Origin: Alphaproteobacteria bacterium
Lineage (GTDB): Bacteria; Pseudomonadota; Alphaproteobacteria; JAEULC01
Reading direction: 5' to 3'
Length of the DNA: 64,000 bases
NCBI GenBank assembly: GCA_020846275.1
Contig: JADLEG010000183.1
Span: 9,693 to 73,692, forward strand
Shown here: in pieces, positions 5,777-42,117 of the stretch
How positions within the stretch are numbered: the first letter of the stretch is position 1
Layout: the number at the start of each line of letters is the position of its first letter
Notes under the pieces: model-generated
What the model was told of the DNA's origin: nothing
Seen by the model: only the letters and a program-made list of their open reading frames with translations
Database searches by the model: none
Made by a program: the position numbers and the translations under genes

Positions 5777-5887
5777 CGCCTGTCCGCGCGGGCCCTGCCC
5801 GTCCTGGCCGAAGTGGCTGATTCGCGTGGACAAAGTGTCGCCGATCGGCCCGCCAAATTCCAGCGCAGGCGCCAAAGCCGCCTGCCG

Positions 5888-10330: not shown

Positions 10331-10999
10331 ATGTCGCTTTACAGACTTAGCGGAGGATTCATCGGAGCCATTCTGGGTATTGCATGCCTTGCCGGTACGG
10401 CATCGGCCCTGCCCAGCCAGACGACCTTCACCGCCGCGGGGCTCGGCAGCATCGGGGATTGGACCCTGGTGGGAACACCGGAGACCTTCGGTTCAGGCGG
10501 CGGCAACGGCGCATTCTCGTCGGGCGGCCTGGCCAATTTCGAGTTGCGCCTTGGCGACTATCGCAACATCTTCGGCGTCGCGCTGACCAACAGCACCGGC
10601 CTGGTGCCGATCTTCGACACCTCGTCCGATGCGGCCGGCGCCAGCGAAGCCTTCGCGCCGCCGGCCAATCCGTTCGTCTTCTACTTCCAGACGATCTGCA
10701 GCAGCTGCTCGAGCGATGACGGCATCATCTTCTCGGACGGCGACCGGACGAACGACGGGCTGGCCCAGCTCGACATGGCGATCTACCAGCAGGGCAGCAT
10801 CTTCGCCTTCTTCTTCGACGATGGCGGCCCGGATGGCGGAATCCTCTGCGGGATCGGCATCGGCTGCAACGACGACAACGACTTCAACGACATGGTCGTG
10901 ACGGTCAGCGCCAACAGCGTGCCCGAGCCGATGACGCTCGGTCTCCTGGGCGCCGGCCTGCTGGGCCTCGGCTTCGCCGGGCGCCGCCGCCGCAGCTAG
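10331..10999 (+). CDS. PEP-CTERM sorting-domain secreted protein (exosortase substrate)
   Basis: N-terminal signal peptide (…GIACLAGTASA). Low-complexity Gly/Ser/Asp/Cys-rich body. The C-terminus VPEPMTLGLLGAGLLGLGFAGRRRRS is the canonical PEP motif plus a TM helix plus an Arg cluster. Confidence 0.8.
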   Translation: MSLYRLSGGFIGAILGIACLAGTASALPSQTTFTAAGLGSIGDWTLVGTPETFGSGGGNGAFSSGGLANFELRLGDYRNIFGVALTNSTGLVPIFDTSSDAAGASEAFAPPANPFVFYFQTICSSCSSDDGIIFSDGDRTNDGLAQLDMAIYQQGSIFAFFFDDGGPDGGILCGIGIGCNDDNDFNDMVVTVSANSVPEPMTLGLLGAGLLGLGFAGRRRRS

Positions 11000-11070: not shown

Positions 11071-12171
11071 TCAATCGTCCAGCAGTGCGAAAATCGCATT
11101 GGGTGCCGGTTTCACGGCGACCGTCGCGCCGGGCTCCTGGCGCCCCTCCTCCAGACACTCGACCACGATCTCGGTGCCTCCGACGTCAACCAGGATGATG
11201 CTGCTCGATCCCTGGAAGGCGCTGCGCACCACCCGGCCGTGCCCCGCGCCGTCTGCGCGCTTTGCCCCCGCCTCGATCGTCAGCAGCGTGGCGCGAACGG
11301 CCACGGTGCAGCGCGCGCCGGCGGCGCGGTCGTCGCGCCACCCCCGCGCGTTCAGCGTGCCGAGCGCCGTGTCGACATGGACGACCTGCCCCGTCCGGCC
11401 GCGCACGGTGCCGTCCAGCAGGTTCTGGATGCCGACGAATTCGGCGGCGAAGCGCGTCCGCGGCCGGCGATAGACATCCTCGGGCGGGCCCGCCTGCTCG
11501 ATCTTCCCCGCGCGCATGACGACGACGCGATCGCCCAGGGTCATCGCCTCGAGCTGGTCATGCGTCACGTAGATCGACGTGAACGGCACCTTCTGGCGCA
11601 GGGCCAGCAATTCCATGCGCATGCGCTCGCGCAGCCGCGCGTCGAGATTCGACAGGGGCTCGTCGAACAGGATCGCCCGCGGCTTTCCCACCATGGCGCG
11701 CGCGAGCGAGATGCGCTGCTGTTGGCCCCCCGAAAGCTCGTGGATGTAGCGTCCGCCGATGCCGCCGAGGCCGACCCAGTCGAGCATCGCCGTGGCCTTT
11801 GCGGCGATCTCGGCCTTCGAGAGCCCGCTGGACAGGAGCGGATAGGCGATGTTTTCCGCGACCGTCATGTGCGGCCACAGGGCATAGCTCTGGAAGACCA
11901 TGCCCAGCCGGCGTTCCTCGGGCGGCACTTCCGTGCGGCGGGCATGATCGAAGGCGACCGTGTCGCCGATCATGATACGGCCTTCGTCGGGCGTGATCAG
12001 CCCTGCGATCGATCGCAGCACCGTGGTCTTGCCGCATCCGCTGGGTCCGAGCAGCACGGTGCATTGGCCGGCCGGGAACGCCAGGCTGAAGTCGTCGAGC
12101 GCTTTCACCTCCGACTGGCGTCCGTAGACTTTGCTGAGGCCCGATACCGACAGGTCGACAAGCTTGTCCAT
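11071..12171 (-). CDS. ABC transporter ATP-binding protein (FbpC/PotA-type)
   Basis: Walker A GPSGCGKTT, signature LSGGQQQRISLARA, Walker B ILFDEPLSNLD, and a C-terminal TOBE domain. Confidence 0.9.
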   Translation of the reverse strand: MDKLVDLSVSGLSKVYGRQSEVKALDDFSLAFPAGQCTVLLGPSGCGKTTVLRSIAGLITPDEGRIMIGDTVAFDHARRTEVPPEERRLGMVFQSYALWPHMTVAENIAYPLLSSGLSKAEIAAKATAMLDWVGLGGIGGRYIHELSGGQQQRISLARAMVGKPRAILFDEPLSNLDARLRERMRMELLALRQKVPFTSIYVTHDQLEAMTLGDRVVVMRAGKIEQAGPPEDVYRRPRTRFAAEFVGIQNLLDGTVRGRTGQVVHVDTALGTLNARGWRDDRAAGARCTVAVRATLLTIEAGAKRADGAGHGRVVRSAFQGSSSIILVDVGGTEIVVECLEEGRQEPGATVAVKPAPNAIFALLDD

Positions 12172-12224
12172 CTATTCCTGCATGGTCTTCTTGGGGAAAC
12201 GGATCATCGGCTCTTCCTCCGCGG

Positions 12225-13913
12225 TCATGCCGCGCTGAACCGGGCAAACTTCCACAGCAGCGCCACCGGCAACAGGCCCAGCACCATCAGCAACAGCGAA
12301 TAGACGGCGAGCTCCGGGTAGAACCCGTTGGACCACACGTCCATCAGCCCGACCGACAGCACGATCGTGCCGGGGTTGTAGAGCAGGATCACCAGCGAGA
12401 TCTCGCGCAGGATCACCACGTAGATCAGCAGCCAGCTTCCCAGCAGCGCCGGGCGCATCAGCGGGATGTCGATCCGGCGCAGCGTCGCCAGCCAGGAATG
12501 GCCGGAGACCCGGGACGCATCCTCCAGGTCGGCGTGGATGCCGTGCAGCGCGCTGCCGACGAACTGCATGGCGATCGGGATATGCGCGGTGACATAGGCG
12601 AGCAGCAGTATCCACAGCGTGCCGTAGAGCCCGCCGGGTATGGCGATCCAGGCGCCCAGGATACCCAGGCCCAGCGCGATGCCCGGGATTCCCAGCGGCA
12701 GAACCAGCGCATACTCGACCACGCGGGACAGGCGCCCGCGCAGGCGGATGACGTACCAGGCCAGCGCGATCGCCAGCAGCACGCAAACCGTGGCGCCCAG
12801 CACCGCCAGGAACAGGCTGTGGCGGGCGGACGGCCACACCTGCGGATACTTGAACAGGATGTAGCTGAAGTTATCGAGCGTGAAGTTCTTGGGCGTGAAG
12901 GCGTAGGGCGCCCAGTACTTCATGAAGGCCATCGAGCTGACCGCGAGCATCGGGATGACCGAGGAGCTGAGCGCGAAGACCATGGCGACGACCGCCAGCG
13001 GATAGCGCATCCGGCCCAGCCGGAACGGGATCGTCGTCGCACCCTTGCCGCCCAGCAGCGTGAACCGGCCACCGCGCGACAGCGCCCGGCGCTGGAAATA
13101 GATGCACACCAGGCCGAAGGCGACCAGCAGAAGTCCCTGCGCCGCCGCCATGCCCGGGCGCGGCGGGAACGAGTTCGAGTTCTGCCAGATCAGGCTGGGC
13201 AGCAGGTAGATGCGCGACTTCAGGCCGACCGTGGCGGGGATGATGAAATCCCCCGCGCTCATGATCAGGACCAGCAGCAGCGCGGCCAGCAGCGCCGGGC
13301 GCTGCAGCGGCAGGATGATCGTCGCGAGCAGCCGCAGCCGCCCCGCGCCGGAGACGCGCGCCGCCTCCTCGACCGCCGGATCGCTGTTGCTCAAGCCCGC
13401 CGCCACCAGCAGGTAGACATAGGGCGTCAGGAACAGGCCGGTGATCCAGACGATGCCGGCCATGGTGTTGACGTTGACCAGCGTCGTCTTCGACCCCATC
13501 GCCAGCGAGGCGATGATGTTGACGAAGCCGGCGTTCGGGTCGGCGATCGCGATCCAGCCGATCACCAGGATGAAGGGCGGCACCAGCATCGGCAGCACGG
13601 CCAGGATGCCGATCCAGCGTCCGCCCGGCATGTCGGTCCGGACCGCGACGACCGCCAGCCCCACCCCCACCACCATCGCGAGCGCGGACGACCCCGCGGC
13701 ATAGATGACGGTGTTGATCAGGGCATCGCGGCTGCGGCCGGATTCGAACAGCGCGGCGAGCCATTGCAGGGTCAGCTCGCTGCCGATGTCGTCCTTGGAA
13801 ATGCTGCGCAGGACGACGGAGACGACCGGATAGCTGACCATCACAACGGTCAGCACGCAGATCATGCCGAGGACCAGCTGGTCCCAGGACAGGGATCGCC
13901 GCCACATCGGCAC
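12225..13913 (-). CDS. ABC transporter permease, fused two-domain (FbpB/AfuB-type)
   Basis: 562 aa with two tandem BPD-type transmembrane permease domains. GTG start. Confidence 0.85.
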   Translation of the reverse strand: MPMWRRSLSWDQLVLGMICVLTVVMVSYPVVSVVLRSISKDDIGSELTLQWLAALFESGRSRDALINTVIYAAGSSALAMVVGVGLAVVAVRTDMPGGRWIGILAVLPMLVPPFILVIGWIAIADPNAGFVNIIASLAMGSKTTLVNVNTMAGIVWITGLFLTPYVYLLVAAGLSNSDPAVEEAARVSGAGRLRLLATIILPLQRPALLAALLLVLIMSAGDFIIPATVGLKSRIYLLPSLIWQNSNSFPPRPGMAAAQGLLLVAFGLVCIYFQRRALSRGGRFTLLGGKGATTIPFRLGRMRYPLAVVAMVFALSSSVIPMLAVSSMAFMKYWAPYAFTPKNFTLDNFSYILFKYPQVWPSARHSLFLAVLGATVCVLLAIALAWYVIRLRGRLSRVVEYALVLPLGIPGIALGLGILGAWIAIPGGLYGTLWILLLAYVTAHIPIAMQFVGSALHGIHADLEDASRVSGHSWLATLRRIDIPLMRPALLGSWLLIYVVILREISLVILLYNPGTIVLSVGLMDVWSNGFYPELAVYSLLLMVLGLLPVALLWKFARFSAA

Positions 13914-13939
13914 GGCTCCGGTCGTCCCCGCGGGTGAGG

Positions 13940-14989
13940 CTACTTAACGTGCTTGTCCCATTCGGCCAGCAGTTCCTGGGTCTTGCCAATGATCATCTTG
14001 TAGTCCGGCTGGACGAAGCTGTGCACCTTGCCGAGCTCGGCCAGCGATCCGGCCTTCGGCGCGCTCGCCTCGGGATGGGTCGGGATCGTGGCGCCGGCGA
14101 CATTGATCAGCGTCTGGCCCTCGCCCGAGCAGGCGAAGTCGCAGAACAGCCGCGCCGCGTTGGGATGGGGGGCCTTGCTGAAAACCGAGATGTTGCCGCC
14201 GAACAACACGGTGTTCTTGGGCACCACGCCGCCGATCGGCGCGCCGGTGTCGGCGAGCTGGATGACGCCGAAAGAGTTCGTCACGCCCATGTCGATCTCG
14301 CCCGATACGATCGCCTGCGACATGGCGTTGGTGCTGGCGTAGAGCTTGGGCTTGTTGGCGCCGAAGCCCTGCAGGTAGGAAGGCCCATAGAGCTGGCTGA
14401 CCATGACCTGCCAGGCCAGCGTGGTCGCGGTCACGTGCGGGTCGAGCGAGCCGAAGCGCCCTTTCCACTTGGGATCCAGCAGGTCCTTCCAGTCCTTCGG
14501 CGCATCGGCGGGCTTCACCGTGTTGGTGTTCCACCCGAGCTGCGCCATGTACATGCGGATCAGCGTGTACTGCGGCGCCTTGTAGGCCGCGTCGATCTTG
14601 GCACGCTCGGGCGAGTCATAGGCGGCCAGGTACGGCACCAGCAGGCTGAGCGCCGGCTCCTCGATGATCAGCGCATCGGCCTGCGGGCGCCCGGCCGATT
14701 CCTCGGTCTGCACCCGCGTCGCGACGTCGGCCGATCCCGCGCGGTAGACCGACACCTCGATCCCGTATTTCTTCTTGAACGCCTCGGCGGCGGCGTTGTT
14801 GGGACCGGTCGAGGCCGAGCTGTACAGGCTGACCGTGCCCTCTTTCTTGGCCGCCTCGACTAGCTTGGGATCGCTGGCGGCGCCGGCGGGGAAGGACGGC
14901 AGCACCGATCCCGCCGCCGCGGCCGATGCGCCAAGCTTCAAGAGGGTTCTGCGGTCGATGCCGGAGGATTGAGAAAATTCCGTCTTCAT
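13940..14989 (-). CDS. ABC transporter substrate-binding protein (Fe3+/FbpA-like, family 1) with Tat signal
   Basis: Twin-arginine signal DRRTLLKLGASAAAAG. Periplasmic binding protein fold. First gene of an SBP-permease-ATPase operon on the minus strand. GGGGAGA Shine-Dalgarno sequence before the ATG. Confidence 0.8.
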   Translation of the reverse strand: MKTEFSQSSGIDRRTLLKLGASAAAAGSVLPSFPAGAASDPKLVEAAKKEGTVSLYSSASTGPNNAAAEAFKKKYGIEVSVYRAGSADVATRVQTEESAGRPQADALIIEEPALSLLVPYLAAYDSPERAKIDAAYKAPQYTLIRMYMAQLGWNTNTVKPADAPKDWKDLLDPKWKGRFGSLDPHVTATTLAWQVMVSQLYGPSYLQGFGANKPKLYASTNAMSQAIVSGEIDMGVTNSFGVIQLADTGAPIGGVVPKNTVLFGGNISVFSKAPHPNAARLFCDFACSGEGQTLINVAGATIPTHPEASAPKAGSLAELGKVHSFVQPDYKMIIGKTQELLAEWDKHVK

Positions 14990-15014
14990 CGTGATCTCCC
15001 CTGTGAGCTTTCGA

Positions 15015-15902
15015 CTATGGTTGGCGTCTTCCCTGTTTCAGTCTGCGCGCGACGATCTCGCCGATCGACGTCACCCGGTCGGCGACGTCCAGCCCGGCGG
15101 ACGCGAAGGCTTTCATCTTGTTCTGCGGCCGGCTGCGCTCGTCGTCGCCCACAACCGCCCCGGCATGGCCCATGCGTGCGTCGGGCGGGCTGCCCTGGCC
15201 GGTAATATAGGCTACGACCGGGGTGCGCATCGTCGCGGCATAGGCAGCCGCGGGATATTCCAGCCCGCCGCCCGGCTCGCCGACCAGGATCACCAGGTCG
15301 GTGTCCGGGTCCGCCTCGAACAGACGCAATACATCCACGTAGCTGGTGCCGATCACCCGGTCGCCGCCCAGGCACACGACCGTGGATTCGCCCAGGCCGT
15401 GCTGGTGGATCTCGTCGATCACTTCATAGGTCAACGTGCCGCTCTTCGAGACGATGCCGATCCGCCCGGGCCGCAGGTTCGCGTCGTTGAGGTCGGCCAT
15501 GTTGGCCTGCCCCGGGCTTACGGCGCCGGCGGAGTTGGGGCCGAGGATCCGCGTGCCGCGCGCCTTGGCATAGGCGCACATCCGGATGGCGTCGTGGACC
15601 GGGATGTTCTCGATATAGAGGACCGCGAGCGCGATGCCGGCATCCACGATCTCATAGAGCCCGTCGACCACATAGGCCGGCGCGATGCAGCTCATCACCG
15701 CGTCGCCGCCGGTCGCCGCGACGGCTTCACGCATCGTGTCGAACACGGGAAGCCCGGCGATCGTGGTGCCGCCTTTTCCCGGCGTGACGCCGCCCACAAC
15801 CGGCGTGCCGCCCGCCGCCATGCGTTCCGCGAACAGCCGCCCGGTCTGGCCGGTGATGCCCTGGACCAGGATCTTGCTCTTCCGGTCGACCAGGATGCTC
15901 AT
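15015..15902 (-). CDS. succinyl-CoA synthetase alpha-subunit-like protein (CoA-binding/ligase-CoA domains; ADP-forming acyl-CoA ligase alpha)
   Basis: MSILVDRKSKILVQGITGQTGRLFAERM… resembles SucD/MtkB (295 aa). The ATG at 15902 overlaps the stop of the upstream beta subunit (ATGA). The upstream 360 aa of the ORF-track frame was rejected. Confidence 0.85.
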   Translation of the reverse strand: MSILVDRKSKILVQGITGQTGRLFAERMAAGGTPVVGGVTPGKGGTTIAGLPVFDTMREAVAATGGDAVMSCIAPAYVVDGLYEIVDAGIALAVLYIENIPVHDAIRMCAYAKARGTRILGPNSAGAVSPGQANMADLNDANLRPGRIGIVSKSGTLTYEVIDEIHQHGLGESTVVCLGGDRVIGTSYVDVLRLFEADPDTDLVILVGEPGGGLEYPAAAYAATMRTPVVAYITGQGSPPDARMGHAGAVVGDDERSRPQNKMKAFASAGLDVADRVTSIGEIVARRLKQGRRQP

Positions 15903-17062
15903 CGCACCGGCCCGCTGGCAGGCGTCATGGACCGGGTCAAGGCCAGTACGCGCTCGGTCGCCGCGCGCAGCGAGGGGCTGTAGAAGCAGCCGGCCGATTC
16001 CACGATCCGCTGCGAAGTCTCCTGCTTCACGCCGCGCATGCGCACGACCACCCGCTCGCGGCCCGGGGCGCCGGGTCGCTGCAGCGCCTGCACCAGCGCC
16101 TCCGCCAGCGCGTCGGTCGAGCGGAGCTGGTAGAAGGCGTTGATGAAATAGACATCGGCGTCCAGCATGAACAGCGCGCCGATAACCTCGGCGGTGTGGG
16201 CCACGCCGCGCGCCAGCGCGCCGTGCAGCTCGATGACGCCCGCGATGCCGACGCCGTGCAGCGAAACCTGGTCGTAGGTCGCCATGGTCAGCCCGGCGCC
16301 GTTGCCGAGGATGGCGACGCTCGGCCGCGCCGGCGCCGGCACCCGCTCGCGATTGTCGACCCCGATCGCGCCGAGCTCGCGGCAGCGCCGCATGAAGGCG
16401 CTGTCGGTGGCCCAGGCAACCGGTGCCGATCGGGCGGGGTGGCGCGACACCGCGTCGTCGTCCAGCACGATCTTGGCGTCGGCCGCCAGCAGCTGCCCCG
16501 AGCTTGTTGCGACCAGCGGATTGATCTCGGCCAGCTCGGCGTCCTCGTCGACCAGCGTCTCGTAAAGGCCCCGGGCCAGCGCCTCGAACTGCCGGTCGAG
16601 CGCCGGGTCCAGCGCCAGCGCGCGCTTCAATCCCTGGATCTGGAAACCGGCCAGCCCGATCAGCGGATCGACATCGACGCTGACGATGGCGGAGCGCGGC
16701 ACCTGCTCGATGTCGACGCCGCCGGCGGCGCTCGCCATCATCGTCACCTGGCCCCGGTCGCGATTGACGAAGGCGGCCAGGTAGTACTCGTGCCGGATCG
16801 CCAGCTTCTGCTCGACGTAGACGGCGTGCACCGCTTCGTTGCCGAGCTTCGCGCCTTGCAACCGGCCGGCCGCCTGTTCGAGCTCGCCGCGTCCGCCGGC
16901 CATCAGGATGCCGCCTCGCTTGCCGCGACCGCCTGCGAGCACCTGCGCCTTCACGACCCAGCCGGTTTCGGAAGGCGGGCATTGCGGCCAGATCGCGCCG
17001 GCGGGAATCGGCACGCGATGCTTGGCCAGCAGCGCCTTGCCTTCGTATTCGAGCAGCTTCAT
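15899..17062 (-). CDS. succinyl-CoA synthetase beta-subunit-like ATP-grasp protein (divergent SucC paralog)
   Basis: MKLLEYEGKALLAKHRVPIP…VKAQVLAGGRGK… matches the SucC N-terminal ATP-grasp region. 387 aa. It is clearly divergent from housekeeping SucC over the C-terminal half. ATG at 17062. Confidence 0.8.
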   Translation of the reverse strand: MKLLEYEGKALLAKHRVPIPAGAIWPQCPPSETGWVVKAQVLAGGRGKRGGILMAGGRGELEQAAGRLQGAKLGNEAVHAVYVEQKLAIRHEYYLAAFVNRDRGQVTMMASAAGGVDIEQVPRSAIVSVDVDPLIGLAGFQIQGLKRALALDPALDRQFEALARGLYETLVDEDAELAEINPLVATSSGQLLAADAKIVLDDDAVSRHPARSAPVAWATDSAFMRRCRELGAIGVDNRERVPAPARPSVAILGNGAGLTMATYDQVSLHGVGIAGVIELHGALARGVAHTAEVIGALFMLDADVYFINAFYQLRSTDALAEALVQALQRPGAPGRERVVVRMRGVKQETSQRIVESAGCFYSPSLRAATERVLALTRSMTPASGPVR

Positions 17063-17091
17063 GTCGCCCTGCGCCCCCGCCGCACCGGCCG

Positions 17092-17892
17092 CTAGCGGCC
17101 CTTGAACGGCCCCGCTGGCCGCTTCTCGGCGAACGCGCGCGCGCTTTCCTTGAAGTCCTCGGTCTGGTGCAGCTTCAGCGGGATGGTTTGCAGATAGGCC
17201 TCGCGCTCCGCCTGGTCCATGTACCAGCGCCTTGTGCGCACCGTGGCGCGGACGCTGAGCGGCGGATTGGCCACGATCTGCCGCGCCAGCTCCAGCGCAA
17301 CGCTCAGGTGCTGACCTTTGGGCGCCACGCGGTCGACGATGCCCGCCTTCAAGGCTTCTTCCGCCGTGAAGAACCGCCCGGTCAGCACGGCCTCGGTGGC
17401 GAAGGACCGCGCGCCGCGAAAGTTCAGCAGCGCCCAGTAGCGCGAGGCCGCGAGGCCGCGCGAGGTCTCGGTCACCTGGAATCGCGTGCCCTCCTCCGCG
17501 ACCACCAGCTCGCTTTCCAGCACCATGCCGAGGCCGAGGCCGACCGCGAAGCCATGCGGCGCGGCAATGACCGGCTTCCAGTTGATGGCGCGCGTCAGCA
17601 GGTCGGACGCATGGGCGCCCCAGCCCTGCGACCCGCCGTGCTTCTTCAGGTCCGCCTCGCTGCGGAGCTGGCGCTGGTGCACGTCGGCGCCGCTGGAGAA
17701 GGCGCGACCCTCGCCGCACAGGATGGCGACGTCGGCCGCTTCGTCGATGTCGAAATCGTGCAGCACGCGCGCCAGGCGCATCACCATGAAGTCGTTGAAG
17801 GCGTTGAGCTTCTCCGGACGGTTGAAGGTAATGGTCGCGATCCGGTCGCGGCAGGAATACTGGATCAGGTCATCGCTGTCGGGCTGCGGCAC
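17092..17892 (-). CDS. enoyl-CoA hydratase/isomerase (crotonase) family protein
   Basis: 266 aa. Crotonase fold motifs …ITFNRPEKLNAF… and …FSSGADV…. Confidence 0.85.
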   Translation of the reverse strand: MPQPDSDDLIQYSCRDRIATITFNRPEKLNAFNDFMVMRLARVLHDFDIDEAADVAILCGEGRAFSSGADVHQRQLRSEADLKKHGGSQGWGAHASDLLTRAINWKPVIAAPHGFAVGLGLGMVLESELVVAEEGTRFQVTETSRGLAASRYWALLNFRGARSFATEAVLTGRFFTAEEALKAGIVDRVAPKGQHLSVALELARQIVANPPLSVRATVRTRRWYMDQAEREAYLQTIPLKLHQTEDFKESARAFAEKRPAGPFKGR

Positions 17893-17955
17893 GGGAACCC
17901 CTTTGTCGGTGCTGCGCGGCGGGCGCCGCGACAGATGGTAGCAACGCGGACGAAC

Positions 17956-18789
17956 TTACTCGTAGGGCACGAGCGGATCGTACTGCAGGTCGATCCATTC
18001 GGACGTGAAATTTGGCTCGCGCCGCTCCCGGAAGGCGCGCGGTCCTTCGCGCGCGTCCCGGTGGAACATCAGCTCCACGTTCGCCAGTATCTGCGCCTCG
18101 AACCCCTTGACCGGGTCGAGCCCCAGCCCCTGGTTGCGCGCGTTCTTGATGGCGCCATAGGCCTGGGTGGGGCCTTTCGACAGCTTGTGGGCGAATTCCA
18201 TCGCGCGCTTTTCGATCTGCTCCAGCGGCACGACCTCGGTCACCAGGCCCAGGCGCAGCGCCTCCTCCATCTCGACGAAGCGGCCGAGCAGCAGCAACTC
18301 GGTGGCGCGGCCCAATCCCACGAAGCGCGGCAGGAGATAGGTCGATCCGCCGCCCAGGCCGCGGTTCACGTAGACGGCGCCGTACTTGGCCTTGGGATCG
18401 CTGAAGCGGAAATCGCAGGCCAAGGCGACATCAAGCCCCGCCCCCACCGCGTAGCCCTGGACGATGCCGACGATCGGCTTGCGCAGGGTCAGCATGTCGA
18501 GCACGGCGCGCGGGAAGCCGGTCCGCAGCCGGGTGTGCAGGTCCGGCGGGCCATACTTGAAGCGGTCCTCCGGCGACAGGTCGTCGCCCGAGCAGAACGC
18601 CCGCCCCTCGCCGCGCACCACAAGCGCGCGGACGGCATTGTCGCGGCGCGCCCGCTCGATCAGGTCGACCAGGCGCAGGATCATCTCGGGATACAGCGCA
18701 TTGAGCTTGTTCGGTCGGTCGAGCGTGATGATGCCAACCGCACCATCGACATCGTAGCGAACGCGATGTTCGGAATCGGACTCGGTCAT
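17956..18789 (-). CDS. enoyl-CoA hydratase/isomerase (crotonase) family protein
   Basis: 277 aa. …ITLDRPNKLNAL…, …FCSGDDL…, …GYAVGAGLDVALACD… are crotonase superfamily signatures. Confidence 0.85.
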   Translation of the reverse strand: MTESDSEHRVRYDVDGAVGIITLDRPNKLNALYPEMILRLVDLIERARRDNAVRALVVRGEGRAFCSGDDLSPEDRFKYGPPDLHTRLRTGFPRAVLDMLTLRKPIVGIVQGYAVGAGLDVALACDFRFSDPKAKYGAVYVNRGLGGGSTYLLPRFVGLGRATELLLLGRFVEMEEALRLGLVTEVVPLEQIEKRAMEFAHKLSKGPTQAYGAIKNARNQGLGLDPVKGFEAQILANVELMFHRDAREGPRAFRERREPNFTSEWIDLQYDPLVPYE

Positions 18790-19080
18790 CGAAGCTCCTG
18801 ACTGCCTGCGGCGGAACGCCGGGCCGCGATGTTAATGCACCATCCCCATGCAAGCCAAGCGATGCGAGTACGCGGCGCGCAGATCGCCCGCCCCTGCAAG
18901 GATCGGCGCATCGGCCGGGCGTGGCGGCAGGCGCTACGCAGGGACGGGCAAGCCTCGCATTGATGCTCGTTTGGCGGTTGCCGGCAACACCGCGTGGTGC
19001 GGTTCGCCGTTACATTTGCCACGCAGAAAAAACGCCGTCAGCGGCAAGCACGGCAAACGTCGGTCGCGTTGCCGCCCGGC

Positions 19081-19848
19081 TCAGGTCCAGCCGCCGTCCA
19101 CGACGAAGTTCTGCGCCGTGCAGTTCTCGCTGTCGTCGGCGGCGAGCCACAGCACCATGCGCGCGATGTCCGCCGGGTAGAGCTTGCGCTTCAGGCACTG
19201 GTTTTCCATCAGCTGCCGCTCGCCGTCGGCGTCGAGCCACAGCTTCACCTGGCGCTCGGTCATGATCCAGCCCGGCACAACGGTATTGACGCGGATGTTG
19301 TCGGGGCCGAAGTCGCGCGCGAGGCCGCGGGTGATGCCATGGACCGCGGCCTTGCTGGCCGTGTAGGCGGGATAGCCGCCCTCGGCGTTCATCCACGAGA
19401 TCGAGCCGAAATTGATGATCGATCCGCCGCCGGCCTGCTTCATCTGCGGGATCGCCGCCTGGGCGGCGAAAAACTGGTGGCGCAGGTTGGTGGCGATGCG
19501 CTCGTCCCAATAGGGCACGGTCACGTCTTCGACCTTGTGGCGGTCGTCGTTGGCGGCGTTGTTGACCAGCGCGCGGATCGGGCCCAGTTCGCGCCCCACG
19601 CGCGCGATCGCCGCGCGCAGCGCCTCGATGTCCCTGAGGTCGCATTCAATGAACTGCGGCCGCGCATGGCCCGCCGCGGCGATGCGCTCGGCCAGCTCGC
19701 GCGCGGCGGCGGCCGCGATGTCGACGAAGGCCACGCGGGAGCCCTGCGCCGCGAAATGCTCGACGATGCCGGCGCCGATGCCCGATCCGCCGCCGGTGAC
19801 GAACACGACGCGGTCGCGCAGGCTGGGATAGATGGCGTACGGGGCCAT
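19081..19848 (-). CDS. SDR family NAD(P)-dependent oxidoreductase
   Basis: 255 aa. TGGGSGIG Rossmann motif, NNAA, and the catalytic YTASK (YxxxK). Confidence 0.9.
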   Translation of the reverse strand: MAPYAIYPSLRDRVVFVTGGGSGIGAGIVEHFAAQGSRVAFVDIAAAAARELAERIAAAGHARPQFIECDLRDIEALRAAIARVGRELGPIRALVNNAANDDRHKVEDVTVPYWDERIATNLRHQFFAAQAAIPQMKQAGGGSIINFGSISWMNAEGGYPAYTASKAAVHGITRGLARDFGPDNIRVNTVVPGWIMTERQVKLWLDADGERQLMENQCLKRKLYPADIARMVLWLAADDSENCTAQNFVVDGGWT

Positions 19849-19879
19849 GCCTTCTCCTCCATACGGATCGACGGCGAGG

Positions 19880-20608
19880 CTATTCGGCGGCGTCGGCCAT
19901 GGCCAGCGGCTCGGCGCCGCGACGCCGGCGCGCCGCCACCGCCTGGCGCACGTCGCGCTCGGACTGGGCGAGCAGGCGCTCCATCGCCCGGCGCGCCCGC
20001 TGCGGCTGGCGATTGCGGATCGCGGTCAGCACGTCGCGATGCAGCGGCAGCGAATGCCGCTGGCCGCGCGGATTGTCGTTCGACAGGCGAAAGCTCATCA
20101 GCAGCGCGGTTTCGATCAGCATGCCCAGGGAACCGATCATCTCGTTGCCGGTCAGGCGCAGGATCGACTGGTGGAACCGGCGATCCGGCTCCTCGAACTT
20201 CTCGCCGTCGTCCCCGGCCGCGTCCATGCCGCGATAGGCGTGCTCCATGCGCCGAACGCCGGCATCGTCGGCGCGTTCCGCGGCGAGCGCCGCGGCCGCC
20301 GGCTCGATCACCCGGCGCAGCTGGAAGACGTCGCGGATATGGGTCTCGATCAACCCCGTGGAGAAGCGCCAGACCAGGACATCGGGATCGAGGAAGTTCC
20401 ATTCCTCGCGGGGGCGCACGCGCGTGCCGGTCTTGGGCTGCGAGGCGATCAGGCCCTTGGCCGCCAGCACCTTGATCGCCTCGCGCAGCGCGGTGCGGCT
20501 GACGCCAAGCTGCACGCTCCAAACGGCCTCGCTGGGCAAGGGCGTGTCCGGGCGCAGTTCGCCCTGGACGATGCGCCGGCCGATCGCATGCGCGATGCGC
20601 CCGTGCAG
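19880..20608 (-). CDS. GntR family transcriptional regulator (FadR/FCD subfamily); start codon uncertain
   Basis: HTH …IAHAIGRRIVQGELRPDTPLPSEAVWSVQLGVSRTALREAIKVLAAKGLI plus an FCD domain. The ORF-track TTG start at 20539 falls inside the HTH. The frame stays open upstream to 20701 with no ATG/GTG/TTG; the 20608 end assumes a CTG start. The true start is unresolved. Confidence 0.65.
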   Translation of the reverse strand: MHGRIAHAIGRRIVQGELRPDTPLPSEAVWSVQLGVSRTALREAIKVLAAKGLIASQPKTGTRVRPREEWNFLDPDVLVWRFSTGLIETHIRDVFQLRRVIEPAAAALAAERADDAGVRRMEHAYRGMDAAGDDGEKFEEPDRRFHQSILRLTGNEMIGSLGMLIETALLMSFRLSNDNPRGQRHSLPLHRDVLTAIRNRQPQRARRAMERLLAQSERDVRQAVAARRRRGAEPLAMADAAE

Positions 20609-20744
20609 GCTGCGTTGCGAGAAGGTGCGGCGGGGGCGCGCGTGGGGGGCGGGGCGGGGCGCGATGGGGTTGTCCTCCCAATCCTCATACGATATGAGTA
20701 GTTATTGCCGCGAACAAAAAGCCCGTCAAGCAACGGAAACAGGG

Positions 20745-21686
20745 ATGCCGCCTTCCGCAGACTCCGCGAGACGCCCGACGGCCGCCGAGGCCGTGGTGAC
20801 GCTTGTGGCCGGCCCCAGCACCCTGGCGGTCGCACCGGCGGCCGGCGGCGCCATCGCGTGCTATCGCACCGAGGCCGCGGGCGGCGCCATCGACTGGCTG
20901 CGGCCGGCAACGCCGGCGGCGATCGCGGCCGGCCAGTCGGACGCAATGGGCTGCTTTCCGCTGGTTCCGTTCTCGAACCGCGTGCGCGACGGACGATTCC
21001 GCTTCCGCGGCCGCGCGGTGGCGATGCCGGCCAACGTGCCCGGCCAGGCCCATGTCGAGCATGGCCACGGCTGGCAGCGGCCCTGGCGCGTCGTCGCCAA
21101 GGAACCGCGGATGCTGGCAATCGAGTACACGCACCAGGCGGACGCCTGGCCCTTCACCTATCGTGCCCGCCAGACCTTCCGCCTGGCCGAGGATATGCTC
21201 GACGTGACGATCGGCGCGCGCAATCTGGGCGACGCGCCGATGCCGGTCGGGCTGGGGTTGCATCCCTATTTCCCCCGCACGGCCACGACGCGGCTGACGG
21301 CCGCGGTCCAGCGGATGTGGGCGACGGACCACGAGGTGATGCCGACCGCGCTGGTCGACCTGCCGGCCGAGCGGCGCCTGGACGACGGCGTGGCGGTGGA
21401 CAGGGTCGCGATGGACAACGCGTTCACCGGCTGGGCCGGGCGGGCGACGATCGAATGGCCGGACAGCGGTGCCGTACTGACGATGACGGCGGCGGCGCCG
21501 CTGTCGTTCCTGGTCGTCTACACGCCGCCGGGTGAGGCCTATTTCTGCGTCGAGCCGGTCAGCAACTGCACGGACGCATTCAACCTGGCCGAATCCGGCC
21601 GCGACGACACGGGCATGATCGTGCTCGCGCCCGGCGCGTCGCTGCACACCAACGTCCGCTTCGCGATCAAGATCAACCGGAACTGA
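20745..21686 (+). CDS. aldose 1-epimerase (galactose mutarotase-like) family protein
   Basis: 313 aa from the internal ATG. …HVEHGHGWQRPW…, …GLHPYF… match the aldose-epimerase fold. The upstream 166 aa of the ORF-track frame overlaps the GntR gene and was rejected. Confidence 0.8.
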   Translation: MPPSADSARRPTAAEAVVTLVAGPSTLAVAPAAGGAIACYRTEAAGGAIDWLRPATPAAIAAGQSDAMGCFPLVPFSNRVRDGRFRFRGRAVAMPANVPGQAHVEHGHGWQRPWRVVAKEPRMLAIEYTHQADAWPFTYRARQTFRLAEDMLDVTIGARNLGDAPMPVGLGLHPYFPRTATTRLTAAVQRMWATDHEVMPTALVDLPAERRLDDGVAVDRVAMDNAFTGWAGRATIEWPDSGAVLTMTAAAPLSFLVVYTPPGEAYFCVEPVSNCTDAFNLAESGRDDTGMIVLAPGASLHTNVRFAIKINRN

Positions 21687-21704
21687 AAAGGGAAGGAGAA
21701 TCCG

Positions 21705-22697
21705 ATGTCCAAGGCGCTCAACGCACTACGCAACGCCGGCTTCGGGCTGGCGCTGGGGCTGGCGGCGACCGGCGCGCCCGCCTGGTCCGCGACCAACACC
21801 GTCGTCATCTACAACGCCGTCAGCACCAAGCTGATCCAGGCCTTCGCCGAGGAGTTCCAGAAGCAGAACCCGGGCGTCAAGGCCGAGATCATCAGCGGCG
21901 GCAGCGGCGAATTGCTGACCCGCATCAAGGCCGAGCGCGCCAATCCGCGCGGCGACGTGCTGGTCGGCCCGGATGCCGACGTGTTCGACGCCGAGATCGA
22001 CCTGTTCGAAGCGTATGATTCCAAGGAGAAGGCCGGCTTCGACAAGGCCGCCGTGCATCCCCAGGGCAAGTACTACGGTTTCTCCACCAACTTCCAGGCC
22101 TTCATCGTCAACACCAAGATGATGCCGCTGGACAAGGCGCCGAAGAGCTGGGCCGACCTCGCGAAGCCGGAATTCAAGGGCAAGATCCTGATGGCCAACC
22201 CGGCCCAGTCCGGCTCGGCCTATTCGCAGATGCACCAGATCCTGATGCTCTATGGCTGGGACGTGATGGGGAAGATCATCCAGAACGCCACCTTCGTGCC
22301 CAGCTCGAAGCTGGCGTTCCAGAACGTAGCCAAGGGCGAGATCGCGGTCGGGCTGACCAGCGAGTTCAACATCCTGGTATCGAAGCTCGAGGGCAACCCG
22401 GTCGACTTCGTCTATCCCAGCGACGGGACCGCGCTGATCAACGACGCCAACGGCATCATCAAGGGCGGGCCGAACGGCGAGAACGCGCGGAAGTTCATCG
22501 ACTACGTCAGTTCGAAGCAGGCCCACACGATCCTGGTCGACCTCGACAAGCGGCGCTCCGCCCGGCTCGACGTAGCACCGCCTCCCGGCCTGCCGGACGC
22601 CAAGGGCATCAAGACCTTCGCCTACGACTCGGCCGGCGCCGCCAAGAACCGCACCGAGGAGCTCGAGAAGTTCGACAAGCTCTTCTCGGCGAAATAG
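21705..22697 (+). CDS. ABC transporter substrate-binding protein (family 1)
   Basis: Signal peptide …ALGLAATGAPAWSA. PotD/AfuA-like binding protein. 18 bp after the epimerase gene. Confidence 0.85.
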   Translation: MSKALNALRNAGFGLALGLAATGAPAWSATNTVVIYNAVSTKLIQAFAEEFQKQNPGVKAEIISGGSGELLTRIKAERANPRGDVLVGPDADVFDAEIDLFEAYDSKEKAGFDKAAVHPQGKYYGFSTNFQAFIVNTKMMPLDKAPKSWADLAKPEFKGKILMANPAQSGSAYSQMHQILMLYGWDVMGKIIQNATFVPSSKLAFQNVAKGEIAVGLTSEFNILVSKLEGNPVDFVYPSDGTALINDANGIIKGGPNGENARKFIDYVSSKQAHTILVDLDKRRSARLDVAPPPGLPDAKGIKTFAYDSAGAAKNRTEELEKFDKLFSAK

Positions 22698-22775
22698 TTT
22701 CCTCTCTCCTTTGAGCGGGGAGCCCCGGCACGGGCTCCCCGCGCTCTTTTCACCGATCGCGCCTGGACCAGACGC

Positions 22776-23876
22776 ATGCTGTCCGTCCGCGAGCTGACCA
22801 AGACCTTCGGCGCGCCACCCGACCGGCTGGTGGCCGTCGACCGCGTGAGCCTGGACGTCAACGACGGCGAATTCTTCACGATGCTGGGGCCCTCCGGCTG
22901 CGGCAAGACGACGACGCTGCGGATGATCGCCGGGCTCGAGCAGGCGACGTCCGGCTCGATCATGTTCGACGGCCAGGACTACACGCGCGTGCCGCCCCAG
23001 CGCCGCAACATCGGCATGGTGTTCCAGTCCTACGCGCTGTTCCCGCATCTCAGCGTGTTCGAGAACGTGGCCTATGGCCTGCGGCCGCGCGGCGTGGCGC
23101 GTGAAGAGATCGCGAGCCGGACCGACGAGGTGCTGCGCGCGCTGCAGCTCGACCGGTATCGCGACCGCCTGCCGGCCACGCTGTCGGGCGGGCAGCAGCA
23201 GCGCGTGTCGATCGCCCGCGCGCTGGTCTACCGCCCCTCGATGCTGCTGCTCGACGAACCGCTGGCCAACCTGGACGCCAAGCTGCGCGTGCAGATGCGC
23301 GAGGAGATCCGGCGCATCCAGCGCGAGTTCGGGATTCTGTCGCTCTACGTCACGCACGACCAGGAAGAGGCGATGGCGATCTCCGATCGCCTGGCGCTGT
23401 TCAACGCGGGCCGGCTGGTCCAGCTCGGCCGCCCGCGCGATGTCTATCGCCACCCGGCCTCGCTGTTCGCCGCCGAGTTCATCGGCCGGGCCAACCTCCT
23501 GCGCGCCAAGGTACTGGACCGCGCCGCCGGCGCGGCGAAGGTCATGCTGCCCGGCGGCGGCATGGTCGCGGTCCCGCGCGTCGTGGCGCTCGGCGACGCC
23601 GAGACGGCGCGCGTGCCGCCGGATGCCGACGCGCTGCTGATGGCACGGCCGGAATCGATGAAGCTCGGCCCGATCGAGGGCCGCATGCCCGGAAGGATCC
23701 TCCGCGCGCAGGATCTGGGCGGGACGAACCGATATATCATTGCGGCCGAGGCGGCGCTGGGCGAGCTGACGGTCGAGGCCGCGCGCTCGGCGCCGGAATA
23801 CGGCGAGGGTGCGTCGGTCGGGCTGGCGCTCAACGCCGAGGAATGCGTGCTGTTCATCCGGCCGGACCCGCGATGA
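22776..23876 (+). CDS. ABC transporter ATP-binding protein (PotA/FbpC-type)
   Basis: GPSGCGKTT, LSGGQQQRVSIARA, LLLDEPLANLD, and a TOBE C-terminus. Confidence 0.9.
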   Translation: MLSVRELTKTFGAPPDRLVAVDRVSLDVNDGEFFTMLGPSGCGKTTTLRMIAGLEQATSGSIMFDGQDYTRVPPQRRNIGMVFQSYALFPHLSVFENVAYGLRPRGVAREEIASRTDEVLRALQLDRYRDRLPATLSGGQQQRVSIARALVYRPSMLLLDEPLANLDAKLRVQMREEIRRIQREFGILSLYVTHDQEEAMAISDRLALFNAGRLVQLGRPRDVYRHPASLFAAEFIGRANLLRAKVLDRAAGAAKVMLPGGGMVAVPRVVALGDAETARVPPDADALLMARPESMKLGPIEGRMPGRILRAQDLGGTNRYIIAAEAALGELTVEAARSAPEYGEGASVGLALNAEECVLFIRPDPR

Positions 23877-25549
23877 CCGATCGGCGCATGCCCGGCCAGG
23901 CCTTGCCGCTCGTCCTCGGCACCTGCGCGGTCGTCATCGCCCTGCTGTTCCTGGTCTACCCGATCGGCAGCGCGACGCTGGGCGCCTTCCTGCGCAACGG
24001 CAAGCCGCTCGCGATCGAGAACCTGACCCTGGCCAATTTCGAGCGCTTCCTGACCTCCGGCAGCTACCAGCGCGCGTTCTGGCATTCGGTCGTGACGGGC
24101 GCGGCGTCGACCATCGTCGCCACCGCCCTGTCGCTGCCGATGGCCTATGCCGTCGCCCGCGCCGCCATGCCGCTGCGCTCGCTGGTGCTGGCGCTGTCGG
24201 TGCTGCCGCTGATCTCGCCGCCCTTCATCGGCGCCTATGCCTGGGTGATCCTGCTCGGCAACAACGGCATCATCAGCAACCTGCTGCGCGACTATGTCGG
24301 CCTCGGCCTGCCGTCGATCTACGGGCCGTTCGGCGTGACCGTGGCCCTGGCGCTGAGCTACTTCCCCTACACCTTTCTGGTGCTGCAGGGCGCGATGGCG
24401 GCGGTCGACACCAGCATCGAGGAGGCCGCCACCATCGCCGGCGCGTCGCGCTGGCGCGTGCTGCGCACGGTCACCTTTCCGATGATCCTGCCCTCGATCG
24501 CCGCCGGCATGCTGATCGTGTTCATCAAGGCGATCGGCGATTTCGGCGTGCCGGCGATCCTCGGCGGCGAATACCAGGTCCTGCCGACGCTGATCTACTA
24601 CCAGATCCACGGCTTCTTCAACCTGAACGCAGCGGCGGCCATCGCCATGGTGAACGTAGCCCTGACCGTGCTGGCGCTCGGCGCCCTGGCCTGGATCAAC
24701 CGCACGCGCGGCGTCGCGACGGTGACCGGCACGGCACGGCGCGCGGCGCGGCCCCTGCCGGCGGGACTGCGCTGGAGCGCCATCGCCTATGTCTGGCTCG
24801 TGCTCCTGGTCGCCAACCTGCCGCAGCTCGTGGTGGTGTTGTACTCCTTCTCCGAGCGCTGGGGCGACACGCTGCTGCCCTCGGTCTACGGGCTCGAGAA
24901 TTATCGCCGGGTGATGGGCGAGCTTGGCACCGTCGTGTGGAATACGGTGGTGCTGGCCGGCGCGGCCACGATCCTGTGCCTGGCGTTCGGGGCGGTGGCC
25001 GCGCACGCGACCGCGCGCGGGCGGATCTACGGGCGATGGGCGGTCGATCTGATCATCATGGTGCCGTTCGTCCTGCCCGGGCTGGTGATCGGCGTTGCCT
25101 ACCTGACCGCCTTCAACGAAGGGCCGCTGGTGCTGACCGGCACGGCGGCGATCCTGATCCTGGCCTATTTCACGCGGCGCGTGGCCTTCGTGTTCCGCTC
25201 GGCCAGCGCCGCCATCACCCAGGTCGACCGCCGGCTCGAGGAGGCCTCGACGATCTGCGGTGCGGACTGGGCGATGACGATGCGCCGCGTCGTGCTGCCC
25301 CTGATCGCGCCGGCGCTGTTGGCCGGGGGCATCCTGGTCTTCGCCACGCTGATCGGCGAGATCAGCGTCACGGTGCTGCTGTATTCCGCGCGCTGGAAGA
25401 CCATCACCATCGCGATCTACGAGTACCTGCTGGGCAACGACATCGCCAAGGCGAGCGCGCTCGGCACCGTGACGATCGTGCTGACGCTGATCCTGGTCGC
25501 CGGCGCCAGCAGGCTCGCCGGGCGCAACATGGCCGACATGTTCCGCTAG
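23873..25549 (+). CDS. ABC transporter permease, fused two-domain
   Basis: Two tandem BPD_transp_1 domains. I chose the ATG at 23873, which overlaps the ATPase stop (ATGA); the ORF track lists 23843. Confidence 0.8.
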   Translation: MTDRRMPGQALPLVLGTCAVVIALLFLVYPIGSATLGAFLRNGKPLAIENLTLANFERFLTSGSYQRAFWHSVVTGAASTIVATALSLPMAYAVARAAMPLRSLVLALSVLPLISPPFIGAYAWVILLGNNGIISNLLRDYVGLGLPSIYGPFGVTVALALSYFPYTFLVLQGAMAAVDTSIEEAATIAGASRWRVLRTVTFPMILPSIAAGMLIVFIKAIGDFGVPAILGGEYQVLPTLIYYQIHGFFNLNAAAAIAMVNVALTVLALGALAWINRTRGVATVTGTARRAARPLPAGLRWSAIAYVWLVLLVANLPQLVVVLYSFSERWGDTLLPSVYGLENYRRVMGELGTVVWNTVVLAGAATILCLAFGAVAAHATARGRIYGRWAVDLIIMVPFVLPGLVIGVAYLTAFNEGPLVLTGTAAILILAYFTRRVAFVFRSASAAITQVDRRLEEASTICGADWAMTMRRVVLPLIAPALLAGGILVFATLIGEISVTVLLYSARWKTITIAIYEYLLGNDIAKASALGTVTIVLTLILVAGASRLAGRNMADMFR

Positions 25550-32717: not shown

Positions 32718-32763
32718 CCGCGTCCTGGCCGCGCCGGCCGGGGCCGGCGTCGGGAGCTGAGCG

Positions 32764-33750: not shown

Positions 33751-33757
33751 GGCCGCA

Positions 33758-34873: not shown

Positions 34874-34882
34874 GCCGAAGCG

Positions 34883-36951: not shown

Positions 36952-36967
36952 GGATACGCGCCTACAA

Positions 36968-38536: not shown

Positions 38537-38555
38537 ACCGCCGCGAGGGGCGCGC

Positions 38556-39692: not shown

Positions 39693-39981
39693 CCGTCCGA
39701 GCCACTGGCCCCGGAACCTTCATCGCGACTTGGACGATGCGCCCTGCACCCGTTACCTCCCGCTGATCTGGACATGTCATTGAATCCACCGGTCGTACGA
39801 AAGGCCGGAAGTTTCAACGAAACTGTCAGCGCTCCCGGGTGCGTCGCACCCAATTCATTCAGCCAGAAATGCGACCTGTATAAGAATTGTTTATAGTGGC
39901 AGCATATGCCCAGCAACGGCGAGCCGCGCAAATCCTCTTGGATACGGCTGCAACGCAGAACGGATGAAGGAGATAGGCAGA

Positions 39982-40959: not shown

Positions 40960-41043
40960 GACAGGTCGGGTAAGCTAGGTGCCGCCGCGCCGATTCCAGG
41001 CGGCGCAGCGGCACCGTTTACGGCGAAGACGCGGGACCAGGCC

Positions 41044-42111
<1,068 letters not shown>

Positions 42112-42117
42112 TCGGGC

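Follow-up and report, generated by a model that had tools for sequence, protein, structure and literature searches.

Which of its neighbours does a ligase resembling succinyl-CoA synthetase work with, and on what kind of acid would it act, when its genes lie far from the tricarboxylic acid (TCA) cycle? This question is raised by a 64,000-nucleotide stretch of an alphaproteobacterial assembly (GCA_020846275.1, contig JADLEG010000183.1, positions 9,693 to 73,692), referred to below as the window. It contains genes for a SucC-like and a SucD-like subunit (here SucC' and SucD') downstream of two crotonase-fold enzymes (ECH_A and ECH_B) and a short-chain dehydrogenase/reductase (SDR). A previous sequence-only reading had combined these five genes with a GntR regulator and a divergent epimerase/ATP-binding cassette (ABC) importer into one complete route. 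As judged by comparison with related loci, the conserved unit instead comprises seven genes on the minus strand (11071-18789), which form an operon with a leader of its own. In general terms this operon would import an organic acid, activate it with coenzyme A (CoA) and process the resulting thioester, a scheme to which we assign a probability of about 0.6. For the window itself the practical outcome is a corrected operon map (Table 1).

The conserved operon

Open reading frame (ORF) calling, frame-specific GC content at third codon positions (GC3, 0.88-0.93 in each frame), Pfam and NCBIfam agree on five minus-strand genes between 15015 and 19848, just where they had been placed before, including a ligase pair of canonical size. 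The ligase genes are translationally coupled: in GCGATGAGC the TGA stop of SucC' overlaps the ATG start of SucD' (ATGA). The link between the ligase pair and the two crotonases proposed earlier thus stands, but the SDR has to be excluded and three ABC importer genes (binding protein, permease and ATPase) had been overlooked, which follow SucD' on the same strand at gaps of 25-53 nt. Over all seven co-directional genes the intergenic gaps are 25-63 nt, with the one ATGA overlap, and beyond the ATPase gene a convergent PEP-CTERM gene ends at 10999. Annotation of the whole window gives no TCA-cycle gene and no second sucCD, which bears out the remark that the ligase does not lie with TCA genes.

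Table 1. Features of the operon and its upstream edge in the window.
Feature	Position	Strand	Details
SucD' (alpha, CoA-binding, phosphohistidine subunit)	15015-15902	-	295 aa; CoA_binding and Ligase_CoA domains (Pfam)
SucC' (beta, ATP-grasp subunit)	15899-17062	-	387 aa; ATP-grasp_2 128 bits, no Ligase_CoA match (Pfam)
ECH_B, crotonase-fold enzyme	17092-17892	-	266 aa; Pfam ECH_1 134 bits; catalytic positions Gly/Glu
ECH_A, crotonase-fold enzyme, PaaG-like	17956-18789	-	277 aa; Pfam ECH_1 161 bits; catalytic positions Asp/Tyr
Periplasmic substrate-binding protein, Tat-type RR signal, FbpA/AfuA/PhnS cluster	13940-14989	-	SBP_bac_8/1/11/6 (Pfam)
Fused two-domain ABC permease	12225-13913	-	two BPD_transp_1 stretches (Pfam); PhnU2-like
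ABC ATPase with TOBE_2, last operon gene	11071-12171	-	ABC_tran and TOBE_2 (Pfam); PhnT2/PotA-like
5' leader / promoter region upstream of ECH_A, limit of the conserved block	18790-18868	-	blastn against L006; AGGAG ribosome-binding site
SDR dehydrogenase (outside the operon)	19081-19848	-	255 aa; adh_short (Pfam)

Relatives of SucC' were taken from genomes and metagenomes, and all module proteins were mapped onto 25 related loci. About 14 non-redundant loci share the order ECH_A, ECH_B, SucC', SucD', binding protein, permease, ATPase without change; every locus that is long enough carries all seven genes in this order, and in every relative examined the ligase keeps the company of two crotonases and a transporter. 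Gene content, operon limits and synteny are in this sense direct observations. Syntenic carriers include Variovorax sp. PBL-E5, metagenome-assembled genomes (MAGs) of Caldimonas and Burkholderiales, an alphaproteobacterial MAG and contigs from soil and lakes, while a further clade member comes from a Steroidobacteraceae MAG. The conserved order spans Alpha-, Beta- and Gammaproteobacteria, and the clade is widespread in metagenomes from soils, the rhizosphere and lakes (at 90% identity, more than 120 clusters are among the matches listed). Genes flanking the module are otherwise unrelated between loci: Pfam results for ten flanking proteins are heterogeneous, and all-against-all clustering of the flanking ORFs of 17 loci yields no conserved partners beyond crotonases, a kynureninase paralogue and IclR.

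The upstream edge is most clearly seen in the closest relative (locus L006), whose module proteins are 91-99% identical to those of the window. Its DNA is 89.7% identical over window positions 18868-13698, with no homology further upstream (blastn). The match stops 79 bp upstream of ECH_A, after which L006 has a major facilitator superfamily gene where the window has the SDR. Roughly 100 bp directly upstream of ECH_A can be aligned with L006, and an AGGAG ribosome-binding site precedes the ECH_A ATG by 7 nt. No operator motif common to five loci was found upstream of ECH_A, where only the window and L006 align. The gap between the SDR and ECH_A measures 291 nt, with a weak hairpin and T-run at 19046-19033 just past the SDR stop. 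Neither the SDR nor the GntR gene was found in any of the 25 related loci searched, nor in a later window-type locus (L092). Because of this absence, together with the end of the L006 homology, the SDR is placed outside the module.

Instead, the SDR more likely belongs with the epimerase. It scores 347 bits against the NCBIfam model of XylB D-xylose 1-dehydrogenase (cut-off 400). Divergent to it and to a GntR/FCD gene, also on the minus strand, lie an aldose 1-epimerase and a further ABC system. Mutarotase and aldose 1-dehydrogenase form a coherent sugar-oxidation pair, and the whole group looks like a separate sugar-oxidation (and uptake) unit, unrelated to the CoA module. Within this region (19081-25549) the epimerase Pfam domain lies at about 20796-21686; the adjacent ABC system is PhnS2/U2-like (binding protein 144 bits), an unusual transporter type for a sugar.

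The ligase

Both subunits remain below the models for housekeeping succinyl-CoA synthetase (SCS). SucC' reaches 227.5 bits against NCBIfam SucC (NF001913, cut-off 370) and SucD' 305.4 bits against SucD (NF004230, cut-off 336); against MtkA (NF010647) SucC' obtains 157 bits where 604 are needed. The best PDB match of SucC' is Thermus SucC (3ufx_B, 145 bits), while SucD' can be aligned over its full length with SucD chains of known structure (238-252 bits). Within its clade SucC' is at least 63% identical, against at most 38% to 64 ordinary SucC sequences from the same scan. The earlier statement that the beta subunit diverges strongly from housekeeping SucC is therefore confirmed by scores as well as by identity.

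Catalytic motifs are retained. SucD' keeps the CoA-binding motif GITGQTG (GxTGxxG), SKSGTLTYE, GEPGGG and the phospho-His loop MGHAGA (in RMGHAGAVV), and in SucC' the motifs EINPL, DAK and GNGAGLTMAT are invariant in the clade. Since the CoA-binding, phospho-His, ATP-grasp and GNGAGL motifs are all kept, the phospho-His catalytic route should work in SucC'D'.

The acid pocket, by contrast with the ordinary enzymes, is rebuilt. In pig SCS, alpha-Tyr167 binds the C4-carboxylate of succinate together with backbone atoms of the beta GIV motif, and in the 3-sulfopropionate ligase HpfYZ the corresponding residues are an alpha His and beta GIN (PMC11489063). SucC' has NAFYQLRS in place of N[IV]FGGITR, that is YQLR for GG(I/V)T, in 18/18 clade members and 0/64 outgroup sequences, whereas the GG[IV] loop is kept in all 64 ordinary SucC sequences. 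A second pocket loop is changed from DxGGG to ELHGA with the same distribution (18/18 against 0/64). Positions fixed in a clade-specific manner number 20 in beta and 27 in alpha (for instance alpha FVPAP to CIAPA); the alpha Tyr of the C4-carboxylate site is retained (in SKSGTLTYE). Even in a distant variant (L091), where SucC' is 48% identical to that of the window, FYQLR and E-x-HGA are still found.

The loss of the succinate loop extends further than this clade. Among the best 137 full-length SucC-like representatives at 50% identity in an exhaustive HMMER search, 67 are missing GG(I/V), and eight clusters (39-64% identity) have ELHG in common, along with Tyr/Phe-Gln/His where Gly-Gly formerly stood. 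The loop-less representatives carry aromatic-x-Gln motifs such as FFQL, YFQT and FLQL. This pattern points to a larger set of putative SucC-like ligases lacking the succinate loop, to which the clade belongs; no characterised member of the set was found in the literature searched.

Given the scores below cut-off, the rewritten acid loop and the constant partnership with crotonases and a transporter, the prediction that SucC'D' is a paralogue with a different acid specificity, rather than the housekeeping enzyme, is well supported. This agrees with the sequence-only reading, which had proposed a paralogous acyl-CoA ligase of other specificity. The added Arg, His and Gln suggest that the distal group of the substrate may have more anionic character or more hydrogen-bond acceptors than a plain carboxylate has, or might be an amino-acid head group.

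The crotonases

Catalytic positions of the crotonases were read by aligning orthologues to the canonical two-Glu hydratase segment of the 9qwv alignment (rat E144/E164 positions). ECH_A has Asp at the first and Tyr at the second position in 15/15 orthologues, and ECH_B has Gly at the first while the second Glu is kept in 18/18. A third crotonase, ECH_C, which occurs in relatives only, invariantly shows Gln/Glu. ECH_A is best matched in the PDB by 2ej5 and Thermus PaaG (6sla, 146 bits), with E. coli PaaG (4fzw_C) as another named relative, but stays below the NCBIfam PaaG cut-off (150 bits against 345). Of the module proteins compared in the distant variant L091 it is the best kept (72%, against 66% for SucD' and 48% for SucC').

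Because the Glu/Glu pair is absent from both ECH_A and ECH_B, neither is likely to be a classical hydratase. The crotonase fold proposed earlier for both enzymes was confirmed by the ECH_1 matches, but the hydration step that had been attached to it was not. Crotonases with a single base typically act through the thioester enolate, in proton shifts, eliminations, decarboxylations or hydrolyses.

The importer of the module

The ligase had previously been supplied with the divergent ABC system as its importer; its importer is instead the downstream, co-directional one, whose binding protein, permease and ATPase are syntenic in every locus that reaches that far. All three proteins remain below the models for transport of 2-aminoethylphosphonate (2-AEP) and related compounds: the binding protein scores 45-64 bits against NCBIfam 2-AEP binding proteins (cut-offs 310-395), the permease 136 bits against the PhnU2-type model (cut-off 593) and the ATPase 303 bits against PhnT2/PotA-type models (cut-off 458). 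The nearest PDB entries of the binding protein are Thermus FbpA-like 7f6t, AfuA 4r72, P5PA 6wce and PhnS 4r6y, so its closest solved relatives include binders of Fe(III), sugar phosphates, pyridoxal phosphate (PLP) and 2-AEP.

Five ABC importers of the Fe(III)/polyamine/2-AEP type occur in the 64 kb (72-2258, 11071-14989, 21705-25549, 39964-44193 and 50036-54173). They have SBP_bac_1/6/8/11 binding proteins and TOBE-domain ATPases, with a fused permease in the three systems whose permease was examined. Such a density of one transporter class is unusually high, and each importer lies beside different catabolic genes.

A kynureninase paralogue and distant variants

In 12 of the 14 complete loci a kynureninase paralogue adjoins the module, either upstream and co-directional, upstream and divergent, or downstream. 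It scores just above the cut-off of TIGR01814 (260.6 bits against 246.4) and reaches 312 bits with Pseudomonas fluorescens kynureninase (1qz9), with the PLP-lysine motif CTYKYLNGGPG conserved. At positions corresponding to P. fluorescens Trp64 and Thr282, which we take to be human His102 and Asn333 (a correspondence given little weight here), the paralogue has Trp and Ile. A theme from the kynurenine pathway had also been considered for the TctC/Amidohydro_2 genes of L007 and L008 (an ACMSD-type link) and was rejected: the only real PDB relative of the Amidohydro_2 protein is the fuconolactonase-type 4dlf, and its NCBIfam match is fuconolactonase (73 bits).

Two distant loci (L091 and L094) encode ECH_A, SucC', SucD' and the kynureninase paralogue in one operon. 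Here the regulator is of the LysR type, and the importer is swapped for an SBP_bac_5 ABC system with two Gln/Glu crotonases. A variant from Dormiibacterota has ECH_A, SucC' and SucD' followed by hydantoinase A/B. Hydantoinase A/B, of the ATP-dependent lactamase family, lies directly downstream of ECH_A-SucC'-SucD' in L091 (11302-18264) and L093 (12311-16237), and M20, S9 and S58 peptidases are found near these variants; there are hints that they handle a lactam- or peptide-derived compound.

As the distant variants keep ECH_A and SucC'D' and exchange the importer, the functional core would consist of these proteins with extra single-Glu crotonases; the kynureninase paralogue would be a usual partner and the importer type exchangeable. 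In the simplest reading, the acid released by the kynureninase paralogue is the substrate of the ligase. Loci without the paralogue, such as the window, would then import the acid directly or encode the paralogue elsewhere.

Proposed route and alternatives

According to the general scheme, a small anionic or zwitterionic organic acid would enter the cell by means of the Tat-exported binding protein, the fused permease and the ATPase. SucC'D' would thioesterify it at the cost of ATP, passing from the ATP-grasp domain via phospho-His and an acyl-phosphate to the thioester; since its acid pocket is rebuilt, the substrate is probably not succinate. ECH_A and ECH_B could then remodel the acyl-CoA without a redox step, ECH_A acting as an isomerase (proton shift) or beta-eliminase and ECH_B subsequently as a hydratase, decarboxylase or hydrolase, after which the product would enter general or central metabolism. 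In most other genomes the acid may also arise inside the cell, where the kynureninase paralogue would hydrolyse a beta-acyl-alanine (a gamma-oxo amino acid) between C-beta and C-gamma and release L-alanine. Whereas the retained catalytic motifs and the altered specificity motifs are observed, we infer in which direction flux runs, what the crotonases do and to which class the substrate belongs. The preferred candidate class is the acid half of a gamma-oxo amino acid resembling kynurenine; next come C3-C5 acids with a beta substituent (such as 3-sulfopropionate or a derivative of aspartate) and then a phosphono-carboxylate.

Several observations weigh against this scheme or parts of it. ADP-forming ligases are reversible, which makes the direction of flux an assumption, and the module contains no lyase, thiolase or thioesterase to finish a catabolic route. 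Fe(III) binders among the closest relatives of the binding protein leave the ligand class wide. With respect to the operon limits, a consensus scan upstream of ECH_A gave no sigma-70 promoter, and the hairpin behind the SDR is weak, terminator-like matches in this region being no commoner than in shuffled sequence; transcription may read through from the SDR into ECH_A in this organism. The window contains no kynureninase, IclR or third crotonase gene, so that for the window the link with kynureninase is drawn through orthology only, and no kynureninase paralogue is present within the available flanks of two of the 14 whole-module loci (L010 and L022) or of the partial locus L006. Finally, no sulfite-handling genes are seen among the flanking genes annotated in nine related loci or sampled with Pfam in five more.

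A more specific and rather improbable version holds that the module and its kynureninase-like partner form an undescribed, redox-free CoA pathway. A PLP hydrolase would yield L-alanine and an acid (which may also come from outside), the SucCD-type ligase would activate the acid, and a crotonase would cleave a bond in a manner new to the fold. Within this version the cleavage might be a hydrolytic deamination (with an ortho-aminoaroyl-CoA such as anthraniloyl-CoA), a beta-elimination that frees sulfite from 3-sulfopropionyl-CoA, or the breaking of the C-P bond in phosphonoacetyl-CoA.

One alternative is the original single route, in which the GntR regulator, SDR, two crotonases, SucCD-like ligase and divergent epimerase/ABC importer jointly provide uptake, oxidation, CoA activation and hydration. 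Its genes are adjacent, the SDR lies on the same strand and there is no promoter consensus before ECH_A; nonetheless, we regard it as very unlikely. The SDR and GntR genes are missing from all 25 related loci searched and from L092, the 90%-identical L006 is no longer homologous from 79 bp ahead of ECH_A onwards, a 291-nt gap with hairpin and T-run follows the SDR, the SDR is XylB-like (347 bits, cut-off 400) and has an aldose 1-epimerase as its partner, and the module has its own downstream ABC system. With the SDR outside, no oxidation step is left within the module, and the complete route as first drawn had to be given up. That SucC'D' could simply be the housekeeping SCS of the organism in an unusual place is scarcely credible. 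Canonical subunit sizes, coupled genes, intact catalytic motifs and a SucD' only slightly under its cut-off (305 against 336) would fit, but SucC' is far from its own (227 against 370), the GG(I/V) loop present in 64/64 ordinary SucC is absent from all clade members, and the genes always stand between crotonases and an importer. Carriers of the Variovorax type presumably have a canonical sucCD as well.

The two remaining alternatives accept the operon and differ in its chemistry. In one, SucC'D' makes the thioester of a beta-substituted short acid (3-sulfopropionate, an N-substituted aspartate or a beta-amino dicarboxylate), one crotonase expels sulfite or an amine via the enolate, and the other hydrates the enoyl-CoA. 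HpfYZ provides the precedent of a SucCD paralogue specific for 3-sulfopropionate and changed at the same GIV motif, and the degradation of 3-sulfopropionate is stated to be unclear for Bilophila wadsworthia; moreover, Arg and His are introduced in the pocket, the relatives of the binding protein include binders of phosph(on)ate groups, and two crotonases in the company of no redox enzyme would suit elimination followed by hydration. However, the HpfYZ signature (alpha His, GIN) is absent, the alpha Tyr being kept and the motif reading QLR, neither crotonase has the Glu/Glu hydratase pair, the kynureninase partner is left unexplained, and a sulfite exporter or dehydrogenase is likewise missing from the same annotated and Pfam-sampled flanks. 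Altogether we hold this route to be doubtful. The other alternative places the ligase at the end of the pathway, where it would yield ATP: the CoA ester is formed otherwise (for example if the kynureninase-like enzyme cleaved a gamma-oxo amino acid by thiolysis in place of hydrolysis), the crotonases remodel it, and SucC'D' frees the acid. Reversibility of ADP-forming ligases, the physiologically ATP-forming direction of HpfYZ and SqwKL and the co-operonic kynureninase paralogue of the variants could be cited for it. On the other hand, importer, ligase and crotonases are kept in loci that have no kynureninase gene in the available flanks (L010 and L022, the window and L006), and substrate-level phosphorylation would be of little value to soil and freshwater Proteobacteria, which are expected to be aerobic heterotrophs. 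Thiolysis is, to our knowledge, not known for the kynureninase family, and we consider an ATP-yielding ligase unlikely. The scheme of import, activation and redox-free processing is retained as the preferred reading.

Other loci in the window and in L006

Ahead of the module, L006 (1-6495) has an analogous second cluster, in which a fused ADP-forming acyl-CoA synthetase (705 aa, ACD type) and a crotonase are combined with a binding protein, two permeases and an ABC ATPase. It joins importer, NDP-forming ligase and crotonase once more, with another ligase family.

In the window, a trio that recurs as a gene set occupies 2403-9211: a transglutaminase-like protein, a circularly permuted ATP-grasp and Alpha-E protein (862 aa) and a DUF2126 putative amidoligase with an N-terminal transglutaminase domain (1107 aa). 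It is followed by a stand-alone homologue of formaldehyde-activating enzyme (Fae; 9406-9963, 187 bits) and, adjoining this, a gene for a small secreted PEP-CTERM protein with a high content of Gly, Ser and Asp (10331-10999). An oligopeptide-type ABC operon (30714-36951) precedes a sulfatase (541 aa) and a protein of the mandelate racemase/muconate-lactonising-enzyme family (36911-39692). Between 45600 and 56600 the GC content is 0.59-0.62, against 0.68-0.72 elsewhere. The genes in this part encode a DAO flavoprotein, an ornithine cyclodeaminase/mu-crystallin, a GntR/FCD regulator, a DHDPS-family protein, a PotD-type ABC system and an OYE and Pyr_redox_2 fusion, and the region looks like an acquired island for the catabolism of opines or imino acids.

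Comparison with known systems

Paralogues of SucCD have repeatedly marked catabolic routes that had gone unrecognised, as for malate, citrate, sulfoacetate and 3-sulfopropionate. The present clade offers an invariant pocket signature of its own (YQLR, ELHGA) and a fixed gene partnership. Identification of its substrate would give a function to a gene family, correct the routine labels "succinyl-CoA synthetase beta subunit" and "ATP-grasp domain-containing protein", and put single-acid crotonases with a kynureninase paralogue to the test in new chemistry. The enzyme families themselves are familiar, and cultured carriers make the module testable. Full-text searches found no description of the module or of SucCD-like ligases coupled to crotonases, and returned only SauCD, HpfYZ and SqwKL.

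With SucCD (EC 6.2.1.5) the ligase shares two coupled subunits, an ATP-grasp beta subunit and a Rossmann-type CoA-binding alpha subunit with GHAGA, the Tyr of SxSGTLTYE and GNGAGL; identity to solved or ordinary SCS is about 55% for SucD' and about 30-38% for SucC'. The signatures of both subunits argue for membership of the SucCD superfamily. It differs in never lying beside TCA genes, in its constant company of crotonases and an importer, and in the YQLR/ELHGA pocket; by the motifs and scores given above it would fall outside succinate-specific SucCD, MtkAB and the HpfYZ signature. Closer in logic are SauCD, a SucCD paralogue for sulfoacetate (PMC10413351), and HpfYZ, which serves 3-sulfopropionate (PMC11489063). 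These ADP-forming paralogues (SauCD/SqwKL and HpfYZ) were recruited to acids outside the TCA cycle through changes at the alpha-Tyr167/beta-GIV site (PMC11489063, PMC10413351), and SauCD, like SucC'D', is clustered with an importer of its own. According to their descriptions they are set apart by pairing with acylating aldehyde dehydrogenases in anaerobes, with no crotonases involved, and by the alpha-His and GIN signature of HpfYZ where SucC'D' has alpha-Tyr and QLR.

MtkAB and CcsAB are likewise natural SucCD paralogues for hydroxy-, di- or tricarboxylates, but their contexts (serine cycle and reverse TCA cycle) are unlike that of the module, and the chains of citryl-CoA synthetase are far weaker PDB matches (53.7 bits for beta, 129.9 bits for alpha). 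The 2-AEP importers (PhnS2/T2/U2, PhnSTUV) resemble the transport genes, all three of which stay below the equivalog cut-offs. As for the crotonases, ECH_A lacks the second catalytic Glu, as do the PaaG proteins 6sla and 4fzw_C; it differs in the first position (Asp, where Thermus PaaG has Ser) and is not found in a paa gene context. Similar logic is seen in the 4-chlorobenzoate dehalogenation module, which combines self-contained CoA activation with non-redox enolate chemistry on a crotonase fold, hands its product on and sometimes includes a transporter. That module relies on an AMP-forming ligase and a hotdog-fold thioesterase, and in its dehalogenase an Asp occupies the second catalytic position, which in ECH_A is Tyr.

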